From Anaerolineae bacterium (GTDB lineage: Bacteria > Chloroflexota > Anaerolineae > Aggregatilineales > J027): DNA of 64,000 nucleotides. A model generated the notes under the pieces. The model was not told the origin of the DNA, did not search any database, and saw only the letters and a program-made list of their open reading frames with translations. The position numbers and the translations under genes are program-made. Location: the NCBI GenBank assembly GCA_019913005.1, contig JAIOHL010000105.1:11177-75176 (forward strand), given 5' to 3'. Positions 5,359-22,975 of this stretch are shown here, in pieces; the stretch's first letter is position 1, and every line of letters begins with the position of its first letter.

Positions 5359-8300
5359 TTGGAGCGCGATTTGGACACCGCCCAAGATTTTGTCAACTTG
5401 TTTGTGGATTCAACTGGCGAACTGCTCTATTTCATCGGCATCTTCGTCATCTACATGGCGGCGCTGTTTATGGCGTTGGGCCAGCGGATGCGCTCCAAAG
5501 AAGAATGGGCCGCCGGACGATATACGGTTGGGTTGTTCCTTGTCCAACTCGTTTGGGTGTCGCTGATGTTAGGGTCACTGGTTGGCATTGTCACCGATGA
5601 CGACTCCATGAAAATCCTGCCTCCCCTCGAACGCGCCGCGAATGCCCTTGTGCTGGTCTTGATCGGATGGGCACTCATCACCGCAGAAAAAGAGAAAAAA
5701 GATCGTTTCGCAGGCTTTGTGGTGTTTAGTTTATGTGCCCTGTTAATCGCTGGGCTGGCCTTTAATTATTCCGAGTGGAATCCCGACCAAGATTTTAATA
5801 CTCAATCCTTTAGTCTATCATGGACGTTTGTACCGACCATCTTGGCAATTTTTGGCTTCCTGCTGCTGATTACGCGCTACAAATTTGTCGCTGACATCCC
5901 GCTGAAACTGCTATTTTTCGTGACCATCCTTATCGGCCACATTTACACCCTCTACCAACTTGCCAATGAAAAATTGGAGGGAGACGCGGCGGGGGGTCTG
6001 CGCTGGACATTTTTAGCGGGCAGTTTGTTGGTGATGGTCGTGGTCTATCGCATGGTGATTGACCGCCTAACCAATGCGATTGACCAAGTGGCCCATTACG
6101 CCGAAAGCATTTCACGTCCATTCGCCACCATTTCACCCACCGGAGACGCTTCTTCGGGCCGTGAAATTGAGGATATGAGCCGCACCGTCACGGCTGAGAC
6201 CGCTGGCATTTCGTCATTAGGGGGACGGAACGAGGCACTTGAAATTATCAAATCACTCGGCACGATGTTGGATAAAGCCGAAACCGATGTCCTACCCCGC
6301 CAAATCGTGATGGCAGTCGCTGAAGCCGTCAAGGCGGATGTGGCGGCGTTGGTCGTTTATGAAGATGCAAATTGGGCAGATGTCATTGCGGCCTACAATC
6401 AAAGTGAGCGTGAACCGATTACGGGCATGTCGTCGCTCAATTTGGAAGAGCAGCCGACTCTCGTCAACGCGATTGAAACCCGCCGCCAGCGTGAACTCAA
6501 AATTGAGGAGCATGGCGAAGAACTGCTTGATTTATATACCCGTCTGGATGTGCCCCACATCGGGCCGACCTATTTGCAGCCCCTGATTCGCAATCAAAAA
6601 GTAGTGGGGGTGTTGATCGTCGGCACACCCTATACTCGCCGTGAACTGCGCGTCAATGATCTACGTCTGCTGGAATCTATTGGCCCACTCGCAGCGCGTC
6701 TGCTGGTCATCAGCCGCACCGCCTTTTTGAATCGGGTACAGGCCGAAGAACGCGCCATCCTCTCGATTATCGAAGGCGATACTTCCGATTCATTGGATGA
6801 AGGCAGCATGATGGCGGCCCGACAGGAAATGCAGGCCAGCCTGACGCTTGCCGAAAATCAGATTAACCACCTGACTGAACTCATCCGCGAACTGCAAATT
6901 GAATTGGATTACGAGCGCAGCCGCATCCGTGAGTTTTTGGGGGATGACCCCGACGCGCAGAGTATCACACAGCGCATTGAGGCCATTTCCAAAGAACGCC
7001 TGCAACTGCAAAGTGAGCGCCATAAACTCGCAATCGCCTTACAGGAGGCCCGTGCCACATTGGTCGGCGTGACCTCTGAGGGCGATGTTGAGATGTACGA
7101 GCGGCTGATTGAAGCCATGCGCCGCGAATTGGGTGATCTACAGACACAAAAGACCCAACTCGAGCAGCAAATTGCTGAAGTCCGCGCGGGCAAAGGCGCC
7201 CCACCTAATCAACAACTGCTGCAAATGCTCAACACGTTGACCGAAGAAAAAGTGCGGATTGCCGTCGAACGAGACAGCATCTCCAAAGAATTGGAACAGA
7301 CTCGCAGCGAACTGAATGCACGCGGGATTGAAGGCGGGGCGCTCGAACTCACCAAGCAGTTGGCCCAACTGAGCGAAGAGCGTGCCCAATACAAAACACT
7401 AGCTGAAAAGGCCATGAGCGAACGGGATGCCCTGCTCAAAGAACGGCAAAATCTCGAAACCGCCATTTCGCACGAAAACGAACGCGACAGCAAGATTAGC
7501 GCGTTGGAAGCGGAAATCGCCCGTTTGATGCAAGACCGTGAAGCTATCGCCAAAAGTCGCGGCAGCCTGAAAAATGAATATCAAACGTTGGTGCTAGAAC
7601 GGGAACAGTGGCAAGTAGACCGTGCCCGTATGATCGCCCACAACGACTCGCTGAAAATGGAATTGGATGAGACGCTGGCTCTGCTGAATAAGGCCAATGA
7701 GGAACGCCAAGAATTATCTGGCGAGCGTGTCCAATTAAATGCCGAACATGACAATCTCCGCGCTGAATTAACCCGCCTGCAAACCGAATACGACACCCTC
7801 TTGGCTCGGTTGGAAGATGACCGCGAACGACTGGAAGAACTGAATACGGAGGGGGTCGGCACGCTGACAGGCATGATCGAAGAAATCACCCGCGAACGCA
7901 CCGGCCTTGAACAGTCGCTGATAAAGGCCAATGAGGACATCGAAATCTACAAGCGCCAAATTGAAAAACTCAGCATACCGTCCGCTGTGCCCGTCACAGT
8001 GAACCCCTCCAGCACACAGGTGGAAAGCGATGCGGTGATCTCCGTCGCCCAAGAACTCCGCACCCCTCTATCGGTCATCATGGGTTATACCGATGTACTG
8101 CTCGGCGAATCGGTGGGGATTTTGGGGGCATTACAGCGTCAATTTTTGACCCGTGTCAAAGCCAATGTAGATCGGCTGGCCCGTCTGGTCGAAGATTTGA
8201 TCCGCATCTCGACTCTCGACAGTGGCAATTTACGATTGCATCCACAAAAGCTCAATCTAGTGGATTTAATTGACGATGCCATCACCAACAGCCGCTATAA

Positions 8301-8793
8301 ATTTGGCGAAAAAGGCATTGTCTTGGACATGGACATCGCTGAGGATAATCTGCCGATTGAAGCTGACCCCGAAGCCATTCAGCAGGTCATTAATCAGTTG
8401 ATCCAAAATGCCTATCTGGTATCGCCAAATGATGGCAGTGTGCGCGTGGTGGCACGGCACGAAGCCAGTGTGCCGATTCCCAGCAACAATGGTCATTCTG
8501 AAATCATTCAGGATGTGGTCTATGTTGCCATCAGTGATGAAGGTGGCGGCGTTCCTCCCGAAGAACTCAAGCGGGTGTTTAGTGGCCTCTATCGCGCCGA
8601 CAGTCCATTGATTACCGGCCTAGGTGAGACAGGGGCGGGCATGTCTATTGCACGGGCCTTAATTGAAGCGCATGGCGGCAAAATCTGGATCGAAAGCACA
8701 CAGGGGATTGGCAACACCTTCAAATTCATCCTGCCCAGCACCCATCCCTATACCAAAACAAATGTCCCAGCAGAGACAGCCAAAGCAGAATAA
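5359..8793 (+). CDS. Membrane-bound GAF, coiled-coil, HisKA-like and HATPase_c protein: a histidine-kinase homolog lacking the phospho-acceptor His
   Basis: 1144-aa ORF. It has about 6-7 N-terminal TM helices, a GAF-like region, and about 400 aa of heptad-rich E/L/R/Q coiled coil. The H-box reads VAQELRTPLSVIMGY, with CAA (Gln) at 8050-8052 where His is expected. The N, G1, F and G2 boxes look intact (LIQNAYLVSP, ISDEGGGVP, VFSGLYRAD, GETGAGMSIARAL). The start is uncertain: TTG at 5359 has no clear SD. Confidence 0.85.
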   Translation: MERDLDTAQDFVNLFVDSTGELLYFIGIFVIYMAALFMALGQRMRSKEEWAAGRYTVGLFLVQLVWVSLMLGSLVGIVTDDDSMKILPPLERAANALVLVLIGWALITAEKEKKDRFAGFVVFSLCALLIAGLAFNYSEWNPDQDFNTQSFSLSWTFVPTILAIFGFLLLITRYKFVADIPLKLLFFVTILIGHIYTLYQLANEKLEGDAAGGLRWTFLAGSLLVMVVVYRMVIDRLTNAIDQVAHYAESISRPFATISPTGDASSGREIEDMSRTVTAETAGISSLGGRNEALEIIKSLGTMLDKAETDVLPRQIVMAVAEAVKADVAALVVYEDANWADVIAAYNQSEREPITGMSSLNLEEQPTLVNAIETRRQRELKIEEHGEELLDLYTRLDVPHIGPTYLQPLIRNQKVVGVLIVGTPYTRRELRVNDLRLLESIGPLAARLLVISRTAFLNRVQAEERAILSIIEGDTSDSLDEGSMMAARQEMQASLTLAENQINHLTELIRELQIELDYERSRIREFLGDDPDAQSITQRIEAISKERLQLQSERHKLAIALQEARATLVGVTSEGDVEMYERLIEAMRRELGDLQTQKTQLEQQIAEVRAGKGAPPNQQLLQMLNTLTEEKVRIAVERDSISKELEQTRSELNARGIEGGALELTKQLAQLSEERAQYKTLAEKAMSERDALLKERQNLETAISHENERDSKISALEAEIARLMQDREAIAKSRGSLKNEYQTLVLEREQWQVDRARMIAHNDSLKMELDETLALLNKANEERQELSGERVQLNAEHDNLRAELTRLQTEYDTLLARLEDDRERLEELNTEGVGTLTGMIEEITRERTGLEQSLIKANEDIEIYKRQIEKLSIPSAVPVTVNPSSTQVESDAVISVAQELRTPLSVIMGYTDVLLGESVGILGALQRQFLTRVKANVDRLARLVEDLIRISTLDSGNLRLHPQKLNLVDLIDDAITNSRYKFGEKGIVLDMDIAEDNLPIEADPEAIQQVINQLIQNAYLVSPNDGSVRVVARHEASVPIPSNNGHSEIIQDVVYVAISDEGGGVPPEELKRVFSGLYRADSPLITGLGETGAGMSIARALIEAHGGKIWIESTQGIGNTFKFILPSTHPYTKTNVPAETAKAE

Positions 8794-8813
8794 GACATCA
8801 AGTTTTTGGCAGA

Positions 8814-8842
8814 TTGACAAACCTCACGAGGTGGCATATCGT
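8814..8842 (+). promoter_or_regulatory. Candidate promoter for the 8895..10145 gene
   Basis: TTGACA (8814-8819), 17-nt spacer, TATCGT (8837-8842). An AGGAG RBS sits at 8883-8887, upstream of the ATG at 8895. Confidence 0.35.
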
Positions 8843-8894
8843 GATAAGGATATGCAATTCCCCCTATTTCACCAACATCATAGGAGCCATCGCT

Positions 8895-10145
8895 ATGCGA
8901 ACAAGACGAACCTTAGTGATTCTCGCCTTTCTAATCGCTATAATGATTATACCCGTTCCCAAAAGTCATGCCCAAGAACCATGGGAAGTCATTTTATTTA
9001 ACAGCAATACCTTTACTGTTTCGACACTGACCCCACAAGGCATCACCTCGCAATTCACGCTGCCTAAACCGAACGTACCACAAGCATCCTTCTACAGTCC
9101 GGTCCTTTCACCCGACCACACGAAACTTGCCTTTCTTGGAAATTACACCCGTGCCGATGGTGTCACCTATCAAAATTCCATATTTGTAGCGGATTTGGTC
9201 AGTCAAACATGCTGTGTTGAACTGATTGACCCGTTGAACTCTGTGATGGATGGGGCAATCATTGGCCCATTCAGCCCGGATAGCAGCCAAATCGCCGCCA
9301 CATTGTTTAGCACCCAAGCTATGATGGGAACGGCAGATATTCCGGCCCTGCTGACGACCTTCGATGTCAACACGGGGATTGTTACCGGCAATAAATCTGT
9401 TAATGACCTCTATCCCGATTACGTCACGAGTATGAGTGTCCCAGTCGAAAGCGCGGTTTTTGGGGCGTGGAAAACGGATGGGCTTCGAGTCGCAGCGAGT
9501 TGCCTTAATTGTTATATTGGCGTGATTGAGGGCCTCTATCAAGTTTGGGATCCAGCAGCGGGCACACTCAGCGACCCTATTGAACCCTTTAACATGATTT
9601 TTCGGCGGCATGAACTGGCGGGCACGGGCGAAAGTGTGGCGGGGGTTTTTGATGAGTCCTATCCTGCCAGCGGCGCAGTTTATCCCGAAGGTGTACCGCC
9701 CAATGTAGTGTTTTATTTTGCTGACCCCACCCAAGCCGAAGGTCAATTGTTGTACCTACATCCTGATGCCCTCCCCCTCGGGTTGACGGAATGGGTCGTG
9801 AACGGTGAAGCCATCCTCGTTACGTTCTATAATTTTGGGGTACAGGAAGGGTTTGAACTGCCCATGCCAACTACCCTTGCTGGGGCGGAAGTTATTTTCC
9901 GGGATGGGACGCATCTGACGGCATCCATGACGGAAACGGAGGGCTTCATGACAGGTACACCGGATGGATGGCTCACACACAACTATCAAACCAACGAGAT
10001 TTTGTATTATCAAGTCGCCAATGGTGCGGTCACCAGCACCAGCCTCGTCATTTTGGATGAGAACGGTATGTGCTGCACTGAATTTGTGGGCATCACCCCA
10101 TCACTGGGACAAGCGATTACCCCCAGTTTCACTCTACCCCAGTAA
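8895..10145 (+). CDS. Secreted hypothetical protein with PD40-like SPD motifs
   Basis: I moved the start to ATG 8895, which follows an AGGAG and gives the signal peptide MRTRRTLVILAFLIAIMIIPVPKSHAQEP. Motifs LSPDHTKLAFLG and FSPDSSQIAA are present. I recognise no catalytic motif. Confidence 0.6.
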   Translation: MRTRRTLVILAFLIAIMIIPVPKSHAQEPWEVILFNSNTFTVSTLTPQGITSQFTLPKPNVPQASFYSPVLSPDHTKLAFLGNYTRADGVTYQNSIFVADLVSQTCCVELIDPLNSVMDGAIIGPFSPDSSQIAATLFSTQAMMGTADIPALLTTFDVNTGIVTGNKSVNDLYPDYVTSMSVPVESAVFGAWKTDGLRVAASCLNCYIGVIEGLYQVWDPAAGTLSDPIEPFNMIFRRHELAGTGESVAGVFDESYPASGAVYPEGVPPNVVFYFADPTQAEGQLLYLHPDALPLGLTEWVVNGEAILVTFYNFGVQEGFELPMPTTLAGAEVIFRDGTHLTASMTETEGFMTGTPDGWLTHNYQTNEILYYQVANGAVTSTSLVILDENGMCCTEFVGITPSLGQAITPSFTLPQ

Positions 10146-10188
10146 TCCACTCTAGCAAGCCGCCCTTGCCTTTGTTAGACTCCCTCCC

Positions 10189-10752
10189 ATGCAACTTTTT
10201 TGGGACGAGGAGTCTAACATTTCTAACCATTCATCTGATAACCACTTGGGACAGCGCATCGCCAAAAATGTTCGACGCCATCCCAAATTAACCCTCACTG
10301 CTATTTCGATCATGCGTTGGTTCCAGCCGCGTTTTACGGCGGGGGTCGTTGGGGTGCTGCTGAATAATGTGGATGAAGTCCTGCTGGTGGAGCATGTGTT
10401 TCATAGCAAAATCCCTTGGGGGTTACCGGGGGGCTGGGTCAATCGTAATGAGCTTTTGACAGCGGCGGTGGAGCGCGAATTTTTGGAGGAAACGGGGTTA
10501 AAGGTCAAAACGCTGTACCCCCTCAACACATGGTCCAGCCCTTATTGGAAAAACCATATTGATGTGGCCTTCGCGGTAGAACTGGTAGACAATACCTTGA
10601 GCCATCCACCATTAACCCTATCCCGCGAACTATTGGCCTATCAATGGTTAAGCCGCGCCGAACTCCCTCATCTTTTTAGGGAACATGTTCAGGTAATTGA
10701 CTTAGCGTTGGCATATCGTCATAGTCGAAACAGCCTCCCACCATTAAAGTAA
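10189..10752 (+). CDS. NUDIX hydrolase
   Basis: The Nudix box is GLPGGWVNRNELLTAAVEREFLEETGL (Gx5Ex7REUxEExGU). Confidence 0.85.
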   Translation: MQLFWDEESNISNHSSDNHLGQRIAKNVRRHPKLTLTAISIMRWFQPRFTAGVVGVLLNNVDEVLLVEHVFHSKIPWGLPGGWVNRNELLTAAVEREFLEETGLKVKTLYPLNTWSSPYWKNHIDVAFAVELVDNTLSHPPLTLSRELLAYQWLSRAELPHLFREHVQVIDLALAYRHSRNSLPPLK

Positions 10753-10776: not shown

Positions 10777-12534
10777 ATGACCTTAACGGAATTACGATCC
10801 CAACAAAAACGCCGCCGTTTGCCCATTATCGAGGTTTTTTCTGGCGTCTTATTGATTATTGCCGCGATTACCTTTGGCACCAATCTGGTATCCTATAGCG
10901 ACAGTTCCAACGACCTCGGCACAGATGTCACTATTGGCGGTGTCCAAGTCGGCGGGTTGGATGCGGGTACACGCCTCGCCCGTCTCGAAGCGGTTTATAT
11001 AGATCAACCCATTGTAATGCGCTATGAAGGTAGCCCGATACTGCTGAATCCGAGTGAGGTTGGTTTCCAACTCGATACCGAAGCCATGCAAGCCGCTGCC
11101 GAACGCCAAAGTGGAACCGACGATGATTTTTGGACAGGCTTCTGGAATTATTTGTGGAATCGCCCTCAACCCGCGATTGACGTGCCATTGATTGCCAACC
11201 TATCGGAAGTTGAATTAAGCCAATATATCCAAGACCTCTCCAACCGTTATGATCGGGATGCGGCGACGGCCAGTTATGATTTGACAACAGGCACTTTCCA
11301 AAATAGCAGTTCCTATACCCGTCTTGACCAGCAGCAGACCGCCGCACTCATTCGGTCAGCCTTATACGAATCTGATCCGACCAAACGGGTGATTGAACTG
11401 CCCATCACCACTACCCCCGGTCAAGCCGCCACAATGGACACCCTGCGCCAAGCGATTATCGAATACATCGAAACTTCACGCGGCATGTTCTATAACGGCC
11501 AAAACACCGTCGTTTCGATGTATGTAATGAACCTGAACACAGGCGAGGAAATGGGCATTTTGCCGAACGCACATGTTTTGGCAAGCAGCACCATCAAAAT
11601 CGGCACCCTCATCAATTTTTTCCGCTATCAAATCACCTCTCCGACTGACGATTTGAAATATTTACTGGCGGCAGCCGTTATTTGCTCAAACAATAGCGCG
11701 GCCAACACGCTAACAATCTATACTGGGGAACAAGCGATTGTTCCCGGCTTACAAAAATTGAATGATACCTTTTGTAAGGCTGGCGCTGTCAACACAAACT
11801 TACTTAGCATGATTGATGTTGGCCCGCAGGAAACCTTGCCTATCCCTGATTATTACACTACCGTCTACCCAACACCCTGCCCCGGTGCGAGTGTTGCCAG
11901 CGCCCAAATTGACACCTCAGTCAATACTCAACTTCCGAGCAACCAAAATGTCACCACTGCCGCTGATATGGGCACGATGCTCATGATGATTTATGACTGC
12001 GCCTATAATGGTAGCGGCCTATTGAGCGTCTTCCCTGATGAAATCACCCAGACCGAATGTCGGCAAATCATCGAAATCCTGAAGGGCACACACTTTCGCC
12101 GTCTGTTGGAATTGGGTGTTCCAGAGGGTGTGACCATCGCGCATAAGGTCGGATATGTACCATCTGCTGGCGTGGTAGGGGATGTCGGTATCGTCTTTTC
12201 AGAGGGTGCGCCCTACGTCTTTGTGATGTACGTATGGGATGGCGTCAATATCAACGCCCCCGGCGTACAAGTCACCCAGGACTGGACATTGATTGAAGAC
12301 GTTTCTCGCCTTGTTTATAACTACTTCAATCCGAATGAACCCATGCTGCAAACGCGCCAACCCTATTTGGCTGATCGAGGCGCAGCGTGCGTGATGCCTT
12401 ACAGCGGAGCGGAAATTAACTTGGAAGACATCAATCAAAATCGTTTTGATATTGATGGAAATCCGCTCACATCGGCTTGTTATGATTGGCCCGATTGCAG
12501 ACCCTTTGATAACTGGGGACGCGACGCGCAATAG
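10777..12534 (+). CDS. Membrane-anchored serine hydrolase, class A beta-lactamase-like, with an N-terminal PG-binding-like region
   Basis: 585 aa with an N-terminal TM. It carries an SxxK motif (ASSTIKIG), an SDN-like motif (CSNNSAAN) and a KTG-like motif (HKVGY). Confidence 0.65.
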   Translation: MTLTELRSQQKRRRLPIIEVFSGVLLIIAAITFGTNLVSYSDSSNDLGTDVTIGGVQVGGLDAGTRLARLEAVYIDQPIVMRYEGSPILLNPSEVGFQLDTEAMQAAAERQSGTDDDFWTGFWNYLWNRPQPAIDVPLIANLSEVELSQYIQDLSNRYDRDAATASYDLTTGTFQNSSSYTRLDQQQTAALIRSALYESDPTKRVIELPITTTPGQAATMDTLRQAIIEYIETSRGMFYNGQNTVVSMYVMNLNTGEEMGILPNAHVLASSTIKIGTLINFFRYQITSPTDDLKYLLAAAVICSNNSAANTLTIYTGEQAIVPGLQKLNDTFCKAGAVNTNLLSMIDVGPQETLPIPDYYTTVYPTPCPGASVASAQIDTSVNTQLPSNQNVTTAADMGTMLMMIYDCAYNGSGLLSVFPDEITQTECRQIIEILKGTHFRRLLELGVPEGVTIAHKVGYVPSAGVVGDVGIVFSEGAPYVFVMYVWDGVNINAPGVQVTQDWTLIEDVSRLVYNYFNPNEPMLQTRQPYLADRGAACVMPYSGAEINLEDINQNRFDIDGNPLTSACYDWPDCRPFDNWGRDAQ

Positions 12535-14640: not shown

Positions 14641-16740
14641 ATGCTGCCGACTTCTAACCGCAATCCCCTTGTCCTTTGTGTAGATGATGACACAGGGATG
14701 CAAACGATGGTCAAAACCGTGATGGAAGCGGAAGGGTATTCCGTCATCCTTGCCGCCGACGGTGCTGAGGGAGTCTCGTTATTTGAGGAGTATCAGCCCG
14801 ACATTATCCTCATGGATTTGATGATGCCCGTGATGGATGGGCTAGAGGCCTGTGCCAGAATTCAGGCACTGCCCGGTGGTGCCCAAACCCCGGTGGTTAT
14901 CATGACGGCCTATGATGAATTTGATGCAGTCGAGCAGGCGTTTAAGGCTGGCAGCACCGATTATTTAACTAAGCCCATCAATTGGGCCGTCTTGCGCAAT
15001 CGGGTACGCCGTCTGCTTAAATCGCGCGAGCTAGAAGACAATCTTCAAGAGAAAATCCAGCAGTTGGATATTTTGCATCGTATTGACCGTGAGTTGGGCT
15101 ACACCCTCAATATTGACCGTGTATTGAATTTGGCAATTGACAGTGCGCTGCGCCGTAGTGGGGCGACGGTCTGTGGGTTAGCATGGCTGAACGAAGAAAC
15201 GTTGTTATTTGAACGGTTGGCGAGTGTGGGGAAATCGCAAATTGTTACGGGGCCAATGACACTCGACTCCCTATACAAAAACTATCCCTATACGATCAAG
15301 ATGTTTCAGGACAATACCCCCGTCGTGGATGCCCGCCCCAATGATCGCACGGGCAATTTGTTCATCCCGATGATGATGCGTGGCAAACCCGCTGGTTTTA
15401 TCGCTCTTGAAAATGTGCCCGTGAGTGAATTCACCAACAGCAGTGACTGGGAATTTTTGGTGCATCTCGCTGGACGCACCGCCGCCGCCCTCGACAAAAC
15501 CCGCATCTATCAAAAAACGCAGACGTATGCCAGTCAACTTGAAAAACTCTATCAAGTCAGCACCACCATTTCGAGCCGATTGGAGCGCCAAGATGTCAGC
15601 GAGCTATCGGCACGGGGTATTGTCACGCTGTTAGAAGGCTCAAGCGCCTGTTTCCTTGAATACGATCCACGCATCAAGGTGCTGCGGGTCAAAAACGGCT
15701 TTGTGCAGGAGAAAATGCTGGACGCCCTGCCAGACGAGGGCACGCTGTATAGTGAACAAGATTATCCCGATTTAATGCGAACGGTCAGAGAGGGACCGCG
15801 TCAATTCCGTCTGAGCGATTCGTCCGTTAATCCTCGCATCAACAGCATCATCACCGCCATGAAAGCGCAGTCCATTCTGGTTGTGCCGCTGATCTATGAA
15901 GAAGATTTATTGGGGATGCTGATCTTATGTGAAAGCCGCAATAATCGCCAATTTCAGCCTGACGAAATCAGCCTTGTGCGCAGTATGGCCCTGCAAGCAA
16001 CCGTCGCATTACAGCAAGCCACCCTCTTTGCCAATGTGCGCGAGTTGGAACAGGTCAAATCGGAAATGATTCGGATGGCCTCGCACGACTTACGTAATCC
16101 GCTGCACAGTGTCAAAGGCTATCTTGAACTGCTGTTGATGGATTTAGCCTCACGTCTTGATGCCCAACAAACCGAATTTGTGACCCGCATGAAAAACGGT
16201 CTCAATCGAATGCAGAGTTTGATGGAAGACATCTTAAACCTAGAAAAAATTGAGAGTCAGCAAGACATCAAACGCCAACCGGTCAATATGTGGATGGTAG
16301 TCAGTGAGGTCAGCGAAAGTGGACGCTCACAGGCCGACCTAAAACATCAAAACTACATCGTGAATCTGCCACCACAATCTGTCTTGGTGTCGGGCAGCGA
16401 AATTCAATTGACCCAAGCCTTCACCAATTTGGTTGGGAATGCCATCAAATACACCCCGGATGAGGGTCGGGTCGAGGTACGCAGTTGGGTAGAAAATGGG
16501 CGGTTTCAGTTCGAAGTGGAGGATAGTGGCTTTGGGATTCCACAGGATCGCCAAAATGGTTTATTCCAGCGATTCTATCGTGCCCAAGCGCCCGGGACGG
16601 AGGATATTCCCGGCACTGGCTTGGGGCTAAGTCTGGTTAAAGCGGTGATTGAACGACATGGGGGTGAGGTTTATTTTTCCAGCACCCCCGGTGTTGGCAG
16701 CACTTTTGGTTGCTGGTTGCCTCTCACGGATACCCAATAG
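14641..16740 (+). CDS. Hybrid response-regulator receiver, GAF and histidine kinase
   Basis: REC domain (LCVDDD, IILMDLMMP, YLTKP). Two GAF-like regions follow. The H-box is MASHDLRNPL and the ATP-binding boxes are GNAIKYT, VEDSGFGIP, FQRFYR and GTGLGLSLV. Confidence 0.9.
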   Translation: MLPTSNRNPLVLCVDDDTGMQTMVKTVMEAEGYSVILAADGAEGVSLFEEYQPDIILMDLMMPVMDGLEACARIQALPGGAQTPVVIMTAYDEFDAVEQAFKAGSTDYLTKPINWAVLRNRVRRLLKSRELEDNLQEKIQQLDILHRIDRELGYTLNIDRVLNLAIDSALRRSGATVCGLAWLNEETLLFERLASVGKSQIVTGPMTLDSLYKNYPYTIKMFQDNTPVVDARPNDRTGNLFIPMMMRGKPAGFIALENVPVSEFTNSSDWEFLVHLAGRTAAALDKTRIYQKTQTYASQLEKLYQVSTTISSRLERQDVSELSARGIVTLLEGSSACFLEYDPRIKVLRVKNGFVQEKMLDALPDEGTLYSEQDYPDLMRTVREGPRQFRLSDSSVNPRINSIITAMKAQSILVVPLIYEEDLLGMLILCESRNNRQFQPDEISLVRSMALQATVALQQATLFANVRELEQVKSEMIRMASHDLRNPLHSVKGYLELLLMDLASRLDAQQTEFVTRMKNGLNRMQSLMEDILNLEKIESQQDIKRQPVNMWMVVSEVSESGRSQADLKHQNYIVNLPPQSVLVSGSEIQLTQAFTNLVGNAIKYTPDEGRVEVRSWVENGRFQFEVEDSGFGIPQDRQNGLFQRFYRAQAPGTEDIPGTGLGLSLVKAVIERHGGEVYFSSTPGVGSTFGCWLPLTDTQ

Positions 16741-16796: not shown

Positions 16797-17501
16797 TTAA
16801 CCATTGACGAACACTTCGTTATCAATAGCCCCGCAATCAATGACCGCACCATTTTGTTTGGCCCGCACCGACCAATAATAAGTGCCGCGCGTGGGGAAAT
16901 AATCCCCGGTGAATGTGATTTGCGTTTCGGGAATCTCGGTTGAAAATACCACGTCCCCTGCCACGTCATACAATTCCACCGCGTAGGTGACTCCTTCGGC
17001 GGTCACCGGAAACCAATAAATGGTCAAGTCGGTGTTTGCAAAATGCTGGTCAATATTTCGCTCATAGTCGGGCGCGAAACTATCACAGATCGCAGGGCGT
17101 TCGAAGGTCGGTATGACCAACGTTGGGGGAGCCACTGAGGGCGTGGTAGCGGCGCTACTGCCCGAACTGGGTGTCCATGTGGGAGGCAGGGTCGGCCCTC
17201 CGCCGCGTGTTGGGATAGGCGCTGTTTGACTGGTTGGCTGTCCAACATTACCAGATGTGGCGTTAGAATCTGGATTTCGCACATCAATCGTCGCCGGGGG
17301 AGGCAGCGTCGGATTGGTGATAATCGGGATGGTGGTTGCAGTTGGTACATCGGTAGCAGCAGTGGTCGGCAATGGGGTGCTCTCACTGCCACCACTCAAA
17401 CCCCCATTGTCTTTGTCTTTATCACCACCACACGCCGCTAAAATTAGAGCTAAGATCAGTAACCCCCACAGCGATAATCGGCGCATTAGCTTTCCCTCCA
17501 A
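16797..17501 (-). CDS. Lipoprotein with a long Pro/Thr-rich linker, function unknown
   Basis: Signal peptide plus lipobox (LILALILAACGG). About 110 aa are P/T/S-rich, followed by a roughly 100-aa globular C-terminus. Confidence 0.6.
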   Translation of the reverse strand: MEGKLMRRLSLWGLLILALILAACGGDKDKDNGGLSGGSESTPLPTTAATDVPTATTIPIITNPTLPPPATIDVRNPDSNATSGNVGQPTSQTAPIPTRGGGPTLPPTWTPSSGSSAATTPSVAPPTLVIPTFERPAICDSFAPDYERNIDQHFANTDLTIYWFPVTAEGVTYAVELYDVAGDVVFSTEIPETQITFTGDYFPTRGTYYWSVRAKQNGAVIDCGAIDNEVFVNG

Positions 17502-17507
17502 GCCATC

Positions 17508-17909
17508 TTATAGGACAAAACCAAATAATAAACTCAATATAATTTCTAGCGCAAAAATGAGAAAGACCATCACGCCAAAAACCAGCATCCAGCCAGCAGG
17601 TCGTCCTGCCACCCACTCCACGTCTGTGTCAAAGCCGACCATGGCCCACCATCCAATACCATAGGTCACTAACCAAATCACGGCCAAAATAGTGACCGGA
17701 ACGGCTGCTACCCCACCGCCTTCAACAGTATCGCTACCCGCCAATAGAAACATAATTGGCAGACCGATCAAACCAACGACTGTCAAAGAAATCAGCATGT
17801 TCACCACAATCCGCGTGGGCCGCGACATCTGGGCCACGCGACGGGTGATACTATCAATCCGGGCACTTGGCCGGGTAGGTGCTTTTGCCATACCTTTTTC
17901 TCCCCTCAC
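17508..17909 (-). CDS. Small integral membrane protein (3-4 TM)
   Basis: 133-aa hydrophobic ORF. It overlaps the glbO stop by 4 nt, which suggests translational coupling. Confidence 0.55.
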   Translation of the reverse strand: MRGEKGMAKAPTRPSARIDSITRRVAQMSRPTRIVVNMLISLTVVGLIGLPIMFLLAGSDTVEGGGVAAVPVTILAVIWLVTYGIGWWAMVGFDTDVEWVAGRPAGWMLVFGVMVFLIFALEIILSLLFGFVL

Positions 17910-18289
17910 TGAGCATTGATCAAAAATGATGCCCCATTTTCAAAATAATTCCGCATCACTGCTGCCACTTCCGGGTCAAATCCAACCTCGTCCAATGCGG
18001 CGGTCATCAGTTCGACCCAACGATTTCGCGCCGCTTGGTCAATTTTGAAAGGTGCATGACGCATCCGCAGGCGGGGATGCCCCCGTTCTTGCGAATAGGT
18101 AGTGGGGCCGCCAAAAAACTGTTCCAAGAACAATTGCAAACGACGTCGGGCCGGTTCTAAATCGTCTTCGGGATACATCGGGCGCAAAACATCATCTGTA
18201 GTGACCCGCCGATAGAACCCTGCAACCAGTTTTTCAAAGCCCACACTGCCAATAATATCGTAAACCTGACCCAGCGTAATCTCAGCCAT
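17906..18289 (-). CDS. glbO: Group II truncated hemoglobin (trHbO)
   Basis: FYRRVTTDDVLRPMYPEDDLEPARRRLQLFLEQFFGGPTTYSQERGHPRLRMRHAPFKI is a near-consensus trHbO core, as I recall it from the Mycobacterium GlbO sequence. Confidence 0.9.
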   Translation of the reverse strand: MAEITLGQVYDIIGSVGFEKLVAGFYRRVTTDDVLRPMYPEDDLEPARRRLQLFLEQFFGGPTTYSQERGHPRLRMRHAPFKIDQAARNRWVELMTAALDEVGFDPEVAAVMRNYFENGASFLINAQ

Positions 18290-18325: not shown

Positions 18326-18355
18326 AAAAATGCGGAGGGTTTGCTAACCCACCTC
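18326..18355 (-). terminator. Probable Rho-independent terminator of the AAA+/RF-like gene
   Basis: The minus strand reads GAGGTGGGTT-AGCA-AACCCTCCGC followed by ATTTTT. The stem is about 8 bp plus internal mismatches. Confidence 0.5.
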
Positions 18356-18375: not shown

Positions 18376-21300
18376 TTAGGAAGTTGAAGGATTGCGGTCA
18401 CGATAAACGCGGCGCTCGAACGGGAAGGTTGGCGGGAAACGGTCTTCCCATGCCACATTTTCATCTTCCTGCTGCAAATAGGCCAAAATGAAATCATCCA
18501 AGCGACCTTTTTCCATCACGTCTTTGATGCGCGTAGTACGTACCGTTGTACGTGTATCCCGTACAAAACGTTCGCCCTGTTTTTCTAACGAGTAGGTGCG
18601 AATGACAGTGAGTTTTTCGGTAGGGGGTGGTGGACGTTTGCCATCCGCAATCTCGTTTTTGATGTACTGATAATCTGAGAGCCAACGGCTGATATTGGTA
18701 CCATCAGGAATCGCAAATACCTGCACCCGACACAACTCATCCGATGCGCCATCCATCCCAACCAGTTTATGAGTGCCTCGTTCGCCTTTGAGGAAACCAA
18801 AAACATTACTGCCTTCAAAAAAGATAGCGAATTCTTCTGAGGGAGCATAACCTTCAAAACGTTTGATAAGTTCATCATAGTTCCCAGCGGTGACATGATG
18901 AAAACCCATCTTGCCGGGGCTTTTTTCATCTGGTTGCAACAAATACACCTCACGGTCATAACCCTTACGCTCCGCCCATTCCAGATACATCCGGGCGATT
19001 TTGCGCGGCCACTCCGTCGCGGCCTGTTGATCTTTCATCGGCGATTGGCCCAAGCGATTAATTAACATCATGGCTTGGTGGCGATGCGGTAGATGTCCCG
19101 TCCGCATCTCGATTTCGAGATACAGCACATTGCTATACAGTTCAGCATAATCCCGCGCCAAATCGGGCTGATAACGTAAGTCGCGCTCCCGATTGACCAG
19201 CATCGCAAAATCTTCTAGATATTCGCAGCGTTCGAGCAATTGACGCAAGCGACGGGTCAGGCGGTCAAGGAAATAGAACCGTGCCAATTTGCGGCGAGCC
19301 TCATCCCCCTTGTCCCAAAAATCCGGCTGTTGGGTGGCTGCCAAGAGTGCCGCTTTTTCAGTGTTCATCTCTTTGACCGTATCACTGTCGGCCCAATCCG
19401 CTAATTTGCGCCGCAGCATAGCGAACCCTTCCAACAACTGCCCGGTATCCATTTGCAGCTTTTGGATATCTGTGCCATCCAGCGCCGTCGAAAGGGCCAC
19501 TTGAGTTGTGGTACGTGCTTCGTCAATCGGCACGAGCTTGAGGTTGATCTGCTTGCTTTCCCGATCTACCTCAATCCGCATTAACTCAGTATCGTCCACC
19601 GATTTTTGGGCCAATTGGCGGGCCATTGGGGCGACCACCAACCGTTCAATTTCGCGTTTGAGTGGACGTGCGCCATATTGCGGGCTGTAGCCTTTTTCCA
19701 AGACTAGATCAATCACCGCATCGTCAATTTCGACCAACAAATTACGGCGGGTGATCCCATCACGCATGAGGATTTCGCCCAATTCGCGTGAGGCGATACT
19801 GCGCAGGGCCAGCGGTTCAAGTTGTTTAAACACCACCACATGGTCAATGCGATTGACAAATTCGGGCCGGAAGTATTTCTCGACCTGCTCTTTGAAATGC
19901 ACCATCAATTGGGCGTTTAGTTCGGCATAGTTGACATTCTCGCTGCCAAAACCCAAGCCTCGAAAACCGCCTGCCGACGTTCCCAGATTGCTCGTTAGGA
20001 TAATGATGCTGTTGTGGAAAAAGGTCGTGCGGCCCCCTGCGTCGGTTAAGCGCCCTTCCCCCAACACCTGCAAAAAGATGTCATAAATGCGTGGGGAGGC
20101 TTTTTCAAATTCATCCAACAGCACCACCGAGAACGGTTGGGCACGTACCTGCTTGGTCAATTCGCCTTCGCTGCCAAATGACCCAATGAGGCGCGATACC
20201 CCATCCAAATCAGCATATTCGCTCATATCAAAGCGAATCAGGCGTTTTTCGTCCCCAAACAGATAGGAGGCCAATGTTTTAGCGAGAAAGGTTTTGCCTA
20301 CCCCTGTCGGCCCAATAAACAAAAATGTGCCGAGCGGTTTGCCGGGGTCATTTAAACCTGCTTTGACCGTCGCTACTAAACTGACAATTGAACCAACCGC
20401 CTGCTCCTGACCGCGCACCCGCTCTATGAAGTATTTCTCAACTTCTGCCAGATCAAGACGCGAACGGTCATTAACAATAAATTCGGGCATCCCCGAATGG
20501 CGGGCAAAGGTATCAATCACATGCTGCCGTTTAACCACTGCCCGTTTGGGTAATCGCCGCAGCAGACTGGCCGACGTAGGAGCATCCCGCCCGTTATCCG
20601 ACTCGGACGAGTCTTTTTTTCGGGAGACATCCGCCACCGCTTCTTCCAACAAACGAATGGCCTTGCCGGGAAAAGCGCGATAGGGGGAAAATCGGCGCGA
20701 AAGCTGCGTGGCGGCTTCATTGGCACTAGGTTCAATGCGTAGGTCAAATTCCCGCTCCAAATCACGGGCCACGTTGCTCAAAACCGCGAGTGTTTCTTCC
20801 TCCGACATGGCAGGCACATCCACCCGCCGGAACAAGTTCATAAAATCCGAGCCGAGCCGTTCCCCCATCGTTACACGATCCGGCGACCCCTCCCCGATAA
20901 TCACGACCTCTCCAGAGGCGATATGAGGTTTTAGGGCTTGGGCGACGTTGGCATCACTTTTTGACCAACGACCAATTTCCAACAAACCGGGCAGATCGCT
21001 GACATACAAAATATGCTGCTTTTTGCGGCACTCATTGACCAAATCGTTGATGCGTTCTTCCCATGTGCCGATGTACTGTGCCCCTGCAATAATGCGATCC
21101 GGGGCCAGCATCCAGATTTCGCGTTCCACCAATCCTTCTGGTGCGTCTTGGGAAGCGACCCGCCGCACAATTTCATGCACAATCGAAGTTTTGCCACTTT
21201 CACTGGGGCCAGTTAGCAAAACGCTGTTATTACGCGATTGCAACAGCACCTGCATGGCCTTATCTACCACTTCTTCACGGTGATAAGCCTTGCGAAAGCG

Positions 21301-21930
21301 TTTTTCAGTCGCCTGCGCGGTCAAATTAATGCCTATTTCCTTCAAGGCCCAATGACCATCTCCACCGCCGCGCCCAAACATCCCACCGCGTTCATGGTTA
21401 TTGGATTCGCGTTCTTTGGGTTTTTTCAGCGAGACTTCAACTTCCAACGTCTCCAATGTCTCGGTACGCGCATACCGATATTCCATCAACTGATCGAGCG
21501 ACAGATTATCGAGCCAGCCTGCCAATTCGATATTGGCCTGCGTCTGCAATTCATCGGGTTGGTACACATAAAAAGCAGGCCCGTGTGGGCCAAGTTTTGG
21601 TACGGTGACATATAACTGACCGTCCTCTTGCGGCTCGACCAGTACACTGAATAACAGCTTGACCTTTTCGCGCCGTTTGTTGCGTTTCTTGCGATCAACT
21701 GGGCGGAGTTCAACCTGCACTTTTTGCAGATAAATGTGCGAATCAAACTCCAAACGATGCAGTTGGTTGGGTGGCATTTCACCAATGCGTTCCATCACGA
21801 CATCCGACAGCTCTTTTTTGATCTCCGTCATATTGATGCCGTAACTGCTGATGTCATAAAATGGCAGCACCGTCACGGTATACGTGCGGTTCCGATGTTT
21901 TTGAACGTAAAGATGAAATTTAAATTTCAT
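18376..21930 (-). CDS. Clp/Hsp100-type double AAA+ ATPase fused to a GGQ-less release-factor-2-like domain
   Basis: 1184 aa counted from ATG 21930; the ORF track starts at TTG 21945. D1 has Walker A GPSESGKT and the Walker B position reads ILYVSD. D2 has GPTGVGKT, VVLLDEFEKA and GARPLKR. The C-terminus carries RF2-like blocks: PDFWD, ARMYLEWAERKGY, GERGTHKLV, VQVFAIP and IRTYSL...DDFILAYL. There is no GGQ and no SPF. Confidence 0.85.
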   Translation of the reverse strand: MKFKFHLYVQKHRNRTYTVTVLPFYDISSYGINMTEIKKELSDVVMERIGEMPPNQLHRLEFDSHIYLQKVQVELRPVDRKKRNKRREKVKLLFSVLVEPQEDGQLYVTVPKLGPHGPAFYVYQPDELQTQANIELAGWLDNLSLDQLMEYRYARTETLETLEVEVSLKKPKERESNNHERGGMFGRGGGDGHWALKEIGINLTAQATEKRFRKAYHREEVVDKAMQVLLQSRNNSVLLTGPSESGKTSIVHEIVRRVASQDAPEGLVEREIWMLAPDRIIAGAQYIGTWEERINDLVNECRKKQHILYVSDLPGLLEIGRWSKSDANVAQALKPHIASGEVVIIGEGSPDRVTMGERLGSDFMNLFRRVDVPAMSEEETLAVLSNVARDLEREFDLRIEPSANEAATQLSRRFSPYRAFPGKAIRLLEEAVADVSRKKDSSESDNGRDAPTSASLLRRLPKRAVVKRQHVIDTFARHSGMPEFIVNDRSRLDLAEVEKYFIERVRGQEQAVGSIVSLVATVKAGLNDPGKPLGTFLFIGPTGVGKTFLAKTLASYLFGDEKRLIRFDMSEYADLDGVSRLIGSFGSEGELTKQVRAQPFSVVLLDEFEKASPRIYDIFLQVLGEGRLTDAGGRTTFFHNSIIILTSNLGTSAGGFRGLGFGSENVNYAELNAQLMVHFKEQVEKYFRPEFVNRIDHVVVFKQLEPLALRSIASRELGEILMRDGITRRNLLVEIDDAVIDLVLEKGYSPQYGARPLKREIERLVVAPMARQLAQKSVDDTELMRIEVDRESKQINLKLVPIDEARTTTQVALSTALDGTDIQKLQMDTGQLLEGFAMLRRKLADWADSDTVKEMNTEKAALLAATQQPDFWDKGDEARRKLARFYFLDRLTRRLRQLLERCEYLEDFAMLVNRERDLRYQPDLARDYAELYSNVLYLEIEMRTGHLPHRHQAMMLINRLGQSPMKDQQAATEWPRKIARMYLEWAERKGYDREVYLLQPDEKSPGKMGFHHVTAGNYDELIKRFEGYAPSEEFAIFFEGSNVFGFLKGERGTHKLVGMDGASDELCRVQVFAIPDGTNISRWLSDYQYIKNEIADGKRPPPPTEKLTVIRTYSLEKQGERFVRDTRTTVRTTRIKDVMEKGRLDDFILAYLQQEDENVAWEDRFPPTFPFERRVYRDRNPSTS

Positions 21931-22060
21931 GGTGTTCCAGTACAAATCTGCCCATTACCAAAGTTTGGAACGCACATTATAACATAATTGGGGTTGCGCC
22001 GATGGGGTGCGAAGGCCATACTTTTGGGGCGTCATTGCAGAAAAAGGAACCATTTACCGA

Positions 22061-22975
22061 ATGAAACCGAAAGCAACGATTTACACCGATGGCGGCTGTC
22101 AACCTAATCCCGGCCCCGGCGGTTGGGCAGTTTTGATTATTGATGAAAATGGGCAGGAACGCGAACTGTCGGGTGGCGAAAAAGATACCACCAACAACCG
22201 CATGGAACTGACGGCAGTGATGAATGCCCTCCTAGCCTTTGACCAGTCCCATGAAATTTACCTGTTTGTAGACAGCGAATATGTCAAAAAAGGGCTGACC
22301 GAATGGATGCCGGGGTGGATACGTAAAGATTGGCGCAGCAGCACAGGCCAGCCTGTCAAAAATCAAGATTTATGGGAACGGCTGAATGTGCTCGTTACGA
22401 AACACGACATCCATTGGAATTGGGTACGTGGTCACGCGGGGAATATCTATAACGAACGGGTAGATCGTCTAGCCGCCGCAGCCATTCCGGGCGCGAAACC
22501 TGCTGCTGAAAAAGCCCCGATTGTCATGATCGAAGCGGCATCCGGTACATTGAGCGTCTATTTTCGCGTGGTTGTGCCGAAGAATGGAGGACCGGGGGGT
22601 TGGGCAATTCGGGTGTGGGATGGCGACCAATCACAGGATTTTACAGGCCGTGTCCCCGCTGTCGAATCCACCAACAAACTCGAATTGATGATTGCCTCGC
22701 AGATTTTTAAAACCGTGCCCAAAGATGCCCCGCTGCGAATTTACTGTACCAGTGAATATGTCTTTAAGGGCATGACCGAGTGGATCAAAGGCTGGCAAAA
22801 GCGCAACTGGATGACTGCCAGCGGCACGCCTGTCAAATATGCGGAGATTTGGCGCGAACTGCAAAAATACACCTCGCAGAGTCGTCCAGTGGAATGGGCA
22901 CTTGAAGCAGGCAACCCGCTGGCATCGGCGGTGAATGGTCTCGATAAATTGGCACAGGCAGCCCTCAATAATTAG
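22061..22975 (+). CDS. rnhA: Ribonuclease HI with a second, degenerate RNase H-like domain
   Basis: Domain 1 has the full DEDD set plus His (IYTDGG, NNRMELTA, LFVDSEYV, GHAGN, NERVDRLA). Domain 2 (from about 22547) keeps GPGGWA, NKLELM and GLDKLA. The first Asp position is not acidic, and the third reads CTSEYV (Asp replaced by Thr). I chose the start at ATG 22061. Confidence 0.85.
   Translation: MKPKATIYTDGGCQPNPGPGGWAVLIIDENGQERELSGGEKDTTNNRMELTAVMNALLAFDQSHEIYLFVDSEYVKKGLTEWMPGWIRKDWRSSTGQPVKNQDLWERLNVLVTKHDIHWNWVRGHAGNIYNERVDRLAAAAIPGAKPAAEKAPIVMIEAASGTLSVYFRVVVPKNGGPGGWAIRVWDGDQSQDFTGRVPAVESTNKLELMIASQIFKTVPKDAPLRIYCTSEYVFKGMTEWIKGWQKRNWMTASGTPVKYAEIWRELQKYTSQSRPVEWALEAGNPLASAVNGLDKLAQAALNN

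Follow-up and report, generated by a model that had tools for sequence, protein, structure and literature searches.

Why would a bacterium join a protein-unfolding ATPase to a release factor that seems to have lost the means both to release a peptide and to read a stop codon? The question is raised by a gene on the minus strand of a 64,000-nucleotide stretch of DNA from an Anaerolineae bacterium of the Chloroflexota, which covers positions 11,177 to 75,176 of contig JAIOHL010000105.1 in assembly GCA_019913005.1 and is referred to below as the window. The product of the gene, called Clp-RF here, is built of four parts, which from the N- to the C-terminus are a novel N-domain, a first AAA+ module (D1), a second AAA+ module (D2) and, on a flexible linker, a module derived from release factor 2 (RF2). 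The protein is the founding example of an undescribed Clp/Hsp100 class with an unprecedented targeting module, and the issue to be weighed is where that module might take the motor.

18376..21930, minus strand: complete Clp-RF fusion gene, 1184 codons plus stop; the exact protein is MBZ0316387.1

The first-pass annotation of this DNA, made from the letters alone, had described a single open reading frame (ORF) of 1184 residues, and such a frame is indeed present, open throughout from an ATG. An alternative in-frame TTG lies five codons upstream and would extend the gene to 18376..21945 (1189 codons). The ATG at 21930 is nevertheless taken as the real start, since the N-terminus that it yields, MKFKFHLYVQKH, is common to about 20 full-length orthologues. 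In the databases the protein goes under the name "AAA family ATPase", and its cluster mates are called "hypothetical protein" or "PCRF domain-containing protein, partial". The Pfam families found along it are AAA_lid_9 (residues 376-444), AAA_2 (531-697, expect value (E) 2e-40), ClpB_D2-small (708-782) and PCRF (858-1057).

Fundamental to the whole problem is the identity of the C-terminal third, which can be divided as follows.

19447..19560, minus strand: flexible linker from D2-small to the release factor (RF) module, residues 791-828, of variable sequence and with a predicted local distance difference test score (pLDDT) below 50 for model residues 1-25
19099..19446, minus strand: RF2-like domain 1, a helical bundle with PDFWD, residues 829-944
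18706..19098, minus strand: RF2-like domain 2, with ARMYLEWAERKGY, an insertion of about 35 residues, GFLKGERGTHKLV, GMDGAS and VQVFAIP, residues 945-1075
18607..18705, minus strand: remnant of domain 3, the helix SRWLSDYQYIKNEIAD and the Pro-rich linker GKRPPPPTEK, residues 1076-1108
18463..18606, minus strand: RF2-like domain 4, with IRTYSL, VRDTRT and GRLDDFILAYL, residues 1109-1156

The likeness of some 340 residues in this region to RF2 had been recognised block by block, and the profile and structure searches bear it out. The Pfam PCRF profile (PF03462) matches with 40.3 bits (E 4e-10, cut-off 24), a score that rises to 44.3 bits in a scan restricted to the C-terminal third, and the NCBIfam profile for prfB matches at E 3e-20 in three collinear stretches, although its score of 72.5 bits (TIGR00020) compares with an equivalog cut-off of 370. 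When residues 801-1184 are compared with all sequences in the PDB by phmmer, RF2 chains are the only matches (best 6szs_z, E 7e-7). The alignment runs in order through domain 1 and the start of domain 2, the GVHRLV strand and the C-terminal LD.FI.AYL helix, with RF2 residues of about 200-326 standing opposite only some 60 residues of the query, and the RF2-type blocks PDFWD, ARMYLEWAERKGY, GERGTHKLV and IRTYSL...GRLDDFILAYL can all be seen in the alignments.

The predicted fold leads to the same place. An AlphaFold2 model of residues 801-1184, built on a family alignment of 19 sequences, has a pLDDT of 82.9 and a predicted template modelling score (pTM) of 0.81, and a Foldseek search of the PDB with this model returns RF2 or RF1 for each of the top 46 matches (E to 3e-12, probability 1.00), after which comes PrfH (9mor_A) with a marginal E of 0.02. 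The highest TM-scores are to free, closed crystal forms of the release factors (1gqe 0.51, 2ihr 0.47, 1rq0 0.44), and the lowest E-value belongs to pre-accommodated RF2 (5mdw). As had been anticipated, the predicted structure contains domains 1, 2 and 4, with domain 3 cut down to one helix and a linker; in the model the module thus keeps the three domains in a compact arrangement like that of closed RF2. Across the family, in members down to 26-30% identity, the motifs W..L..MYL.WA..KGY, G.L.GE.G.H, R.Y, RD.RT and G.LD.FILAYL are near-invariant. To judge from the aligned sequences, the motifs that are kept are those common to all class-I release factors, and they are under strong constraint over a deep divergence.

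What has been lost from the module is just as well defined. Every member carries a deletion of about 75 residues at the GGQ alpha/beta subdomain, a clean excision that leaves a single helix with a conserved Trp (SRWLSDYQYIKNEIAD in the window) and the linker G.RP.PP.E[KR] at the position of the switch loop. The RF-1 domain (PF00472) has no match in scans of the whole protein or of its C-terminal third, no member has a GGQ at the domain 3 position, and a tblastn search with domain 3 of RF2, covering all frames of the window and of the related loci, gives no match. The loss of GGQ noted at first sight is therefore upheld, with no hidden GGQ domain, as is the replacement of SPF by GMDGAS: the SPF...RRHTSF of RF2 reads GMDGAS...DELCRV in the window protein, and the recognition-loop region varies by subclade (GMDGAS, RPSGER, KLPGEEIE). 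In addition, the GAGGTE tip of helix alpha5 has become a variable loop of low pLDDT. The claim that the decoding-centre-binding part of a release factor is retained must accordingly be divided, as the scaffold of domains 1, 2 and 4 stands and the alpha5 tip, SPF, the RRHTSF residues and the switch loop do not. From these losses we infer that the module is unable to release peptide or to read stop codons. GGQ tripeptides do occur by chance in a few relatives and were set aside as candidates: in the related loci L006, L012 and L017, and in P0006, the tripeptide lies in an insertion in domain 2 (PGGQSF or PGGQMF) at which the Q position is variable, and in L010 it lies inside a D2 loop, not at the domain 3 position.

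This domain 2 insertion is a family trait of 30-50 residues, comprising one strand and one helix, and lies at the hairpin tip of domain 2 near RF2 E167-K177. It contains the motif PGG-x-[SA]F, where x is Q, K, R or C, and where KMG stands in the window. According to PMC7530605, domains 2 and 3 of closed RF2 meet at this hairpin. It is therefore plausible that the insertion occupies the room left by domain 3, and the fact that the best TM-scores are to closed forms agrees with this.

The other half of the fusion is the AAA+ body, which has the following features.

20596..21375, minus strand: D1 AAA+ module, residues 186-445
21187-21210, minus strand: D1 Walker A GPSESGKT, P-loop kept
21052-21087, minus strand: D1 pore loop AGAQYIGTWEER, ClpB-like, with Tyr
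20995-21012, minus strand: degenerate D1 Walker B ILYVSD, without the catalytic Glu
20431..20595, minus strand: D1-D2 linker, residues 446-500, short and probably disordered, in place of the ClpB/ClpC M-domain (ClpB 413-531 unmatched)
19561..20430, minus strand: D2 AAA+ module and D2-small, residues 501-790
20290-20313, minus strand: D2 Walker A GPTGVGKT, invariant in the family
20164-20190, minus strand: shortened D2 pore loop LIGSFGSEG, 6 residues shorter
20110-20127, minus strand: D2 Walker B VVLLDE, canonical
19945..19959, minus strand: GLGFG loop after D2 sensor 1, with the candidate ClpP-docking tripeptide LGF

The marks of the Clp/Hsp100 proteins, namely two tandem P-loop AAA+ modules, AAA_lid_9 and ClpB_D2-small, are all present. 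In the PDB the body matches ClpC and ClpB with E-values between about 1e-90 and 1e-97, and the large and small domains of D2 match ClpC/ClpA-type entries at about 1e-87 to 1e-90. Among NCBIfam profiles the best match to the whole protein is ClpB, with 402 bits against a cut-off of 1232 (TIGR03346), and ClpA (TIGR02639) scores 379 bits against 993, its profile being matched in one stretch. A Pfam scan of the protein does not find Clp_N, and the M-domain is absent, as first described, with no counterpart for ClpB residues 413-531.

The two rings differ in their state of preservation. In D1 the annotated pairing of an intact Walker A with a degenerate Walker B is borne out and proves to be family-wide: in all 27 members examined the Walker B has the form hhhh-x-D-[LVIS] (ILYVSD-L in the window), in which x can be S, E, P, N, T, D, R or A. 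One of the two D1 arginine-finger residues is invariant, and the pore-loop Tyr is found in most members. Since the P-loop is kept and the catalytic Glu has gone, ATP binding by D1 probably serves assembly and a grip on the substrate, with hydrolysis that is poor or absent, as was first proposed. In D2, by comparison, the motifs GPTGVGKT, LLDEFEKA, TSNLG (sensor 1), RPEF.NR (arginine finger) and GARPLKR (sensor 2) are invariant and, with all its catalytic motifs intact, D2 is by its sequence the motor of the protein.

Does this motor feed a protease? The segment that follows D2 sensor 1 has its best PDB matches in ClpC1 of M. tuberculosis and in ClpC, ahead of ClpB, and each residue of the GLGF in the window protein stands opposite its counterpart in the GLGF of ClpC1. 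This is the ClpP1P2-docking LGF loop of ClpC1, to which IGL in ClpA and IGF in ClpX correspond. Of 20 genomic orthologues 19 keep the G-[FL] pair, and in five diverged members the tripeptide is IGF, IGF, IGL, LGL and LGL. Because the loop matches that of ClpC1 and the tripeptide persists in distant members, the body is ClpC/ClpA-like and coupling to ClpP is moderately well supported by sequence. The first-pass annotation had placed the docking loop correctly and called it weak evidence, which the exact alignment and the conservation show to be too cautious; likewise its ClpA/B-like D1 ring was right as to the Clp type, with ClpC/ClpA being the better description in view of the ClpC1 loop.

How widespread is the fusion, and is it real? 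A scan of 185,579 species-representative genomes with a single peptide pattern, which the distant members of the family do not match, gave 26 loci, all in the Chloroflexota: mostly Anaerolineae, together with Aggregatilineales, Ardenticatenia and one member of the Chloroflexaceae. The other matches in the scan were ordinary RF2 of at most 31% identity. The window is 99% identical to the Anaerolineae metagenome-assembled genomes (MAGs) DTUCFX7 and CFX5, the full architecture of 1143-1184 residues is found in about 20 independent MAG loci from different studies, and 17 near-identical cluster members share the architecture of the window protein. The restriction to Chloroflexota holds for this core clade; distant members come from GCA_964418185, GCA_012517255, GCA_041156685, GCA_024224665 and a JGI sample. 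The contig neighbours of one of the diverged proteins, P0036 (PEP-CTERM and N_methyl/SBP_bac_10), are typical of genomes of the Planctomycetota/Verrucomicrobiota type, which hints that the family may extend beyond the Chloroflexota.

The diverged full-length members P0026, P0030, P0036, P0040, P0044 and P0051 each have an RF-like tail, recognised in three of them by Pfam PCRF, in P0040 by hhalign (99.9% probability, E 5e-35) and in the others by inspection of motifs. A seventh, P0052, which is also full-length and distant, has a shorter tail that matches the RF profile only marginally (E 0.009, probability 4.7%), so that six of these seven distant full-length proteins have all four parts. Against 5.8 billion proteins, a broad profile of the RF module separates the family (E at or below 1e-37) from true RF2 proteins with PCRF and RF-1, which begin at 6e-22, and in that set no stand-alone or otherwise fused RF module lacking domain 3 was found, the short matches being fragments on short contigs or split genes.

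Could the gene nonetheless be an artefact, whether an assembly chimera, a frameshifted pseudogene or an RF2 that has lost its GGQ through sequencing error? The split and fragmentary entries show that assembly errors do occur in the family, and this is the only support for the idea. Set against it are the recurrence of the architecture in the MAGs and the near-identical cluster members, indels between orthologues that keep the reading frame, and the lack of coding potential for a GGQ domain, whichever frame is read in the window and the related loci. Together these make the probability of an artefact practically negligible. The possibility of a chimera, which had been raised at the outset, is answered by the same MAGs and by the diverged metagenomic relatives.

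The split genes themselves deserve a mention. In L025 the family gene is divided between an ORF at 7525-10521 (998 residues) and an adjacent ORF of 123 residues, P0010 and P0025 lie on one 122-kb ENA contig, and P0077, on a 4.18-Mb contig, is a further case. Frameshift errors in long reads are probably responsible, or else real pseudogenisation. Such genes give rise to misleading database names, including "release factor A/B" and "PCRF domain".

The N-terminus of the protein is as much a property of the family as its C-terminus.

21376..21930, minus strand: family-specific N-domain, residues 1-185, in place of Clp_N
21667..21705, minus strand: Arg/Lys cluster RPVDRKKRNKRRE, residues 76-88, between two predicted strands of the N-domain

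That this domain of about 185 residues is uncharacterised, as first stated, is confirmed by the lack of any Pfam match and of a significant relative among PDB sequences in a profile search (best E 0.45); its AlphaFold2 model, from an alignment of seven sequences, is poor (pLDDT 34.5). By eye, residues 1-50 resemble a HicB/UPF0150-like beta-beta-alpha arrangement, a likeness that no tool supports and that is not claimed here. A profile of the domain run against 1.84 billion representative proteins gave 34 matches, all of which start at residue 1; the complete proteins among them are of 1029-1182 residues, and none was seen to carry the domain outside the Clp-RF architecture. Because neither the RF module nor the N-domain is ever found in another architecture, the four parts are, on the evidence of these searches, to be regarded as working as one unit.

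Within the N-domain the Arg/Lys cluster stands out. It is invariant as RP.DRK.R.KRRE in the core clade and appears as GRRRKTK, GRKRRDR or GRRRRTK in the most diverged, barely alignable members; the domain is not basic overall. The cluster is a candidate nucleic-acid-binding or regulatory element, compatible with RNA binding.

What, then, might such a protein do? The most likely reading, which follows that of the first-pass annotation, is argued purely from homology and is given a little below an even chance, is that Clp-RF is a machine aimed at the ribosome. The compact, GGQ-less and codon-blind RF2 mimic would dock at the ribosomal A site or factor-binding site and would thereby tether the motor, a hexamer that is probably coupled to ClpP, to ribosomes whose A site is accessible, for example those that are stalled, non-stop, idle or damaged; the tethers would be the linkers of some 40 residues, six to each ring. 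The motor would then extract, remodel or degrade a ribosome-associated protein, for instance a ribosomal protein, a factor bound to the ribosome or the nascent chain. A more specific version, in which Clp-RF is a single-polypeptide bacterial counterpart of Vms1-Cdc48 ribosome-associated quality control (RQC) or of Dom34 surveillance, with a dead RF2 mimic delivering ribosomes or stuck protein to a ClpP-coupled motor, is quite unlikely.

A number of observations weigh against a ribosomal role. Some of these concern the motor. Direct extraction of a nascent chain is not straightforward, given the distance that separates the A site from the exit tunnel. The D2 ring, which had been called canonical, is so in its catalytic motifs and not in its pore-1 loop, which is six residues shorter than in ClpB, ClpC and ClpA (GAPPGYVGYEEGG becoming GS-FG-SE-G) and is without the Tyr of GYVG; the loop has a Phe in the core clade and in distant members contains no aromatic residue at all (for example GAPGSEEEG or GVPGSSKEGG). 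A loop as short as this would be unusual for a processive threading motor that feeds ClpP, and threading is not assured. The first position of the ClpP-type tripeptide is often Pro in the core clade (PGF), the tripeptide in P0036 is PSL, and no clpP was found in the window or the related loci, where the search was made with an approximate query, E. coli ClpP.

Much of this would fit a ribosome remodeller that acts independently of ClpP, in the manner of ClpB, ClpV or NSF, and splits idle or hibernating ribosomes or strips a factor from them, with the GF loop surviving as a relic of ClpC. The short and sometimes non-aromatic pore loop, the atypical PGF and PSL tripeptides, the absence of clpP nearby and the position of ClpB as the best whole-protein NCBIfam match all favour it. 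A relic is, however, hard to reconcile with a G[FL] that is kept at RF-module identities of about 26-40% and with an IGF or IGL in the most diverged members, and the best PDB matches of the loop region are ClpC1 and ClpC ahead of ClpB, so that such a remodeller must be considered improbable.

The remaining objections to a ribosomal role concern the RF module and its surroundings. The alpha5 GGTE tip, SPF, the strand residues of the R213/H215 type and the switch loop are all lost or variable, the remaining RF scaffold might serve only as a structural core, and among the loci compared no gene for translation or rescue recurs as a neighbour. A steric conflict between the 30-50 residue insertion of domain 2 and the 30S subunit is conceivable; in favour of ribosome binding, the site of the insertion is not obviously 30S-facing on the account of closed RF2 in PMC7530605.

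These points lead to the alternative of exaptation, whereby the RF2 scaffold would have been taken over for a non-ribosomal purpose as an interaction, oligomerisation or autoregulatory domain, such as an adaptor or a ring-gating lid, of a ClpC-like protein. That the elements specific to termination and to the decoding centre have all been lost or vary, that the recognition loop differs by subclade as if no common ligand such as mRNA were being read, and that no neighbours are related to translation are all as this alternative would have it, and an exchange of accessory domains is a common route of diversification among Clp ATPases (ClpA, B, C, E, L, V, G, K). It does not sit easily, however, with invariant motifs that are the same as those in all genuine class-I release factors, with the retention of the whole three-domain arrangement, domain 1 included, instead of one interaction surface, or with the absence of a candidate partner encoded nearby. 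On balance exaptation appears somewhat unlikely, though it is the main rival and has to be taken seriously, given the loss of every element known to have a specific role at the decoding centre, and a machine aimed at the ribosome is the reading that is preferred.

Beyond the RF module the protein ends in a short tail.

18379..18462, minus strand: C-terminal tail with the motif W-EDR-F-PPTFPF, residues 1157-1184

The motif W-EDR-[FY]-PPTFP[FY] is kept in the core clade, where it forms the end of the protein in most orthologues, and is absent from distant members; the window protein runs 13 residues beyond it (ERRVYRDRNPSTS). It could be a docking peptide.

The genomic context of the gene comprises the following features.

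22007-22975, plus strand: tandem RNase H gene with two PF00075 domains, likely start ATG 22061, separated by a spacer of about 130 bp from the Clp-RF gene
21976..21984, minus strand: TGTTATAAT, which resembles an extended -10 promoter element, read from the sequence some 46 nt before the ATG
18326..18355, minus strand: weak terminator-like bulged hairpin with U5, fold z = -1.0
17906-18289, minus strand: truncated globin (PF01152), downstream of the Clp-RF gene, conserved in 4 of 23 loci
17508-17909, minus strand: multi-pass membrane protein of 133 residues, with a 4-nt overlap with the globin stop codon, in 9 of 23 loci
16797-17501, minus strand: lipoprotein-like protein of 234 residues, in 11 of 23 loci

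The tandem RNase H gene upstream is divergent (E 9e-61 for its PF00075 domains) and is found nearby in 7 of 23 related loci; the shared spacer of about 130 bp is as first annotated. The extended -10 element in front of the Clp-RF gene was not called by a two-hexamer promoter scan. On the downstream side, the first-pass annotation had seen a monocistronic gene with its own terminator. In the window the stop codon is followed by an 86-bp gap in which a bulged hairpin with U5 does lie at 18326-18355, and to that extent the terminator is there; a consensus scan made no call at this position and the folding energy is unremarkable (z = -1.0), which lends the terminator no support. In three relatives (L008, L009 and L010) no more than 2-40 bp separate the Clp-RF stop from the start of the globin, which suggests that the two genes are co-transcribed there and makes monocistronic organisation doubtful and not a trait of the family. 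A hybrid sensor gene at 14641-16740 (plus strand), which encodes an N-terminal receiver, two GAF domains, HisKA and HATPase_c, adjoins the downstream trio, and a homologue is placed likewise in L004 and L009. In distant members the neighbours are unrelated to those of the core clade. The operon partners, which have no apparent link to the Clp-RF gene, are thus uninformative as to function, and ARAGORN finds no tRNA or tmRNA in the whole window.

The context also bears on the idea that Clp-RF is a decoy or guard of RF2, in which the module would serve as bait to which RF2-binding proteins, for example ArfA/BrfA-like recruiters, toxins or phage factors, are drawn, and the unfoldase would then remove or degrade them in the service of regulation or defence. 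An RF2 look-alike without catalytic capacity is what such a bait would be, and ArfA and BrfA bind the domain 2 beta-sheet of RF2 beside the SPF loop (5mdw, 5u4j, 6szs). Yet the SPF-side region at which ArfA docks is not conserved in the family, PADLOC matches only the generic AAA+ core (residues of about 490-650), and the gene sits in a chromosomal context of housekeeping and metabolic genes with partial vertical synteny, not in a defence island. A decoy is for these reasons very improbable, and membership of a defence system, considered separately, was rejected on the same PADLOC result and context.

Why should this family matter? The Clp-RF proteins reverse the usual course of RF specialisation, in that the decoding-side scaffold is kept, the GGQ is deleted and the whole is covalently joined to a ClpC-like motor. 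If the ribosome is truly bound, molecular mimicry would, for the first time in bacteria, be seen to bring an AAA+ unfoldase or protease to the A site, the logic of eukaryotic Vms1-Cdc48 and Dom34 would have been invented independently, and a natural A-site-targeting domain would be available for the dissection of codon-independent ribosome recognition. If in addition the RQC-like version holds, a new bacterial route of ribosome-associated protein quality control or of ribosome turnover would be added. If the ribosome is not bound, a translation-factor fold would have been exapted as a Clp accessory domain, and the protein would represent a new Clp/Hsp100 class all the same. The rings, too, would divide their labour in an unusual way, with D1 predicted to grip without hydrolysis and D2 to hydrolyse with a shortened pore loop.

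It remains to place Clp-RF among the systems that are already known. With ClpC, ClpC1 and ClpA it shares the two AAA+ modules, a strongly similar D2, the GLGF loop of ClpC1 and, with ClpA, the lack of an M-domain; it differs from ClpC and ClpA in having a novel N-domain instead of Clp_N, a D1 without the Glu, a short D2 pore loop and an RF2-like module of about 355 residues. From ClpB/Hsp104 it is set apart by the absence of both the M-domain and Clp_N and by a score far below the TIGR03346 cut-off. Another Clp class with divergent accessory regions, ClpI of the Actinomycetota, has reportedly been recognised in recent times and defined by bioinformatics; ClpI is not known to have an RF-like module, and it belongs to a different phylum from the Clp-RF family.

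On the side of translation, the module is like RF2 (prfB) in that domains 1, 2 and 4 are homologous by sequence and predicted fold and carry the universal motifs of the RF scaffold, and unlike it in lacking GGQ with the RF-1 domain, the switch loop, SPF and the alpha5 GGTE tip, in having the domain 2 insertion and in being fused to an ATPase. ArfB/YaeJ, ICT1, C12orf65/mtRF-R and PrfH are likewise specialised derivatives of class-I release factors, for which an action on stalled or damaged ribosomes is established or presumed (PMC6514570). ArfB, ICT1, C12orf65 and PrfH are nevertheless the mirror image of Clp-RF, as they have kept the GGQ and lost the codon-reading domains, whereas Clp-RF has done the reverse. 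To our knowledge, all described specialised bacterial RF derivatives keep the GGQ and discard the decoding domains. Literature searches found no description of the Clp-RF fusion, and the fullest survey of RF evolution, which is anchored on the catalytic domain (PMC6514570), makes no mention of the architecture.

The nearest analogues in function are eukaryotic and not homologous. The same survey (PMC6514570) describes both: Vms1-Cdc48, and Dom34, which mimics a release factor, lacks the catalytic Gln and recognises ribosomes that have stalled. By analogy only, Clp-RF resembles Vms1/ANKZF1 with Cdc48/p97 in bringing together an RF-like A-site ligand and a double-ring AAA+ unfoldase; Vms1 and Dom34 differ from it in having the fold of the eRF1 superfamily, the association of Vms1 with Cdc48 is non-covalent, and Vms1 is catalytically active. 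Clp-RF, as judged from its sequence, thus belongs to the Clp/Hsp100 superfamily but to no named class within it, and is derived from RF2 but is no release factor, because it falls below the equivalog cut-offs for ClpA, ClpB and RF2 and has shed the defining features of each.

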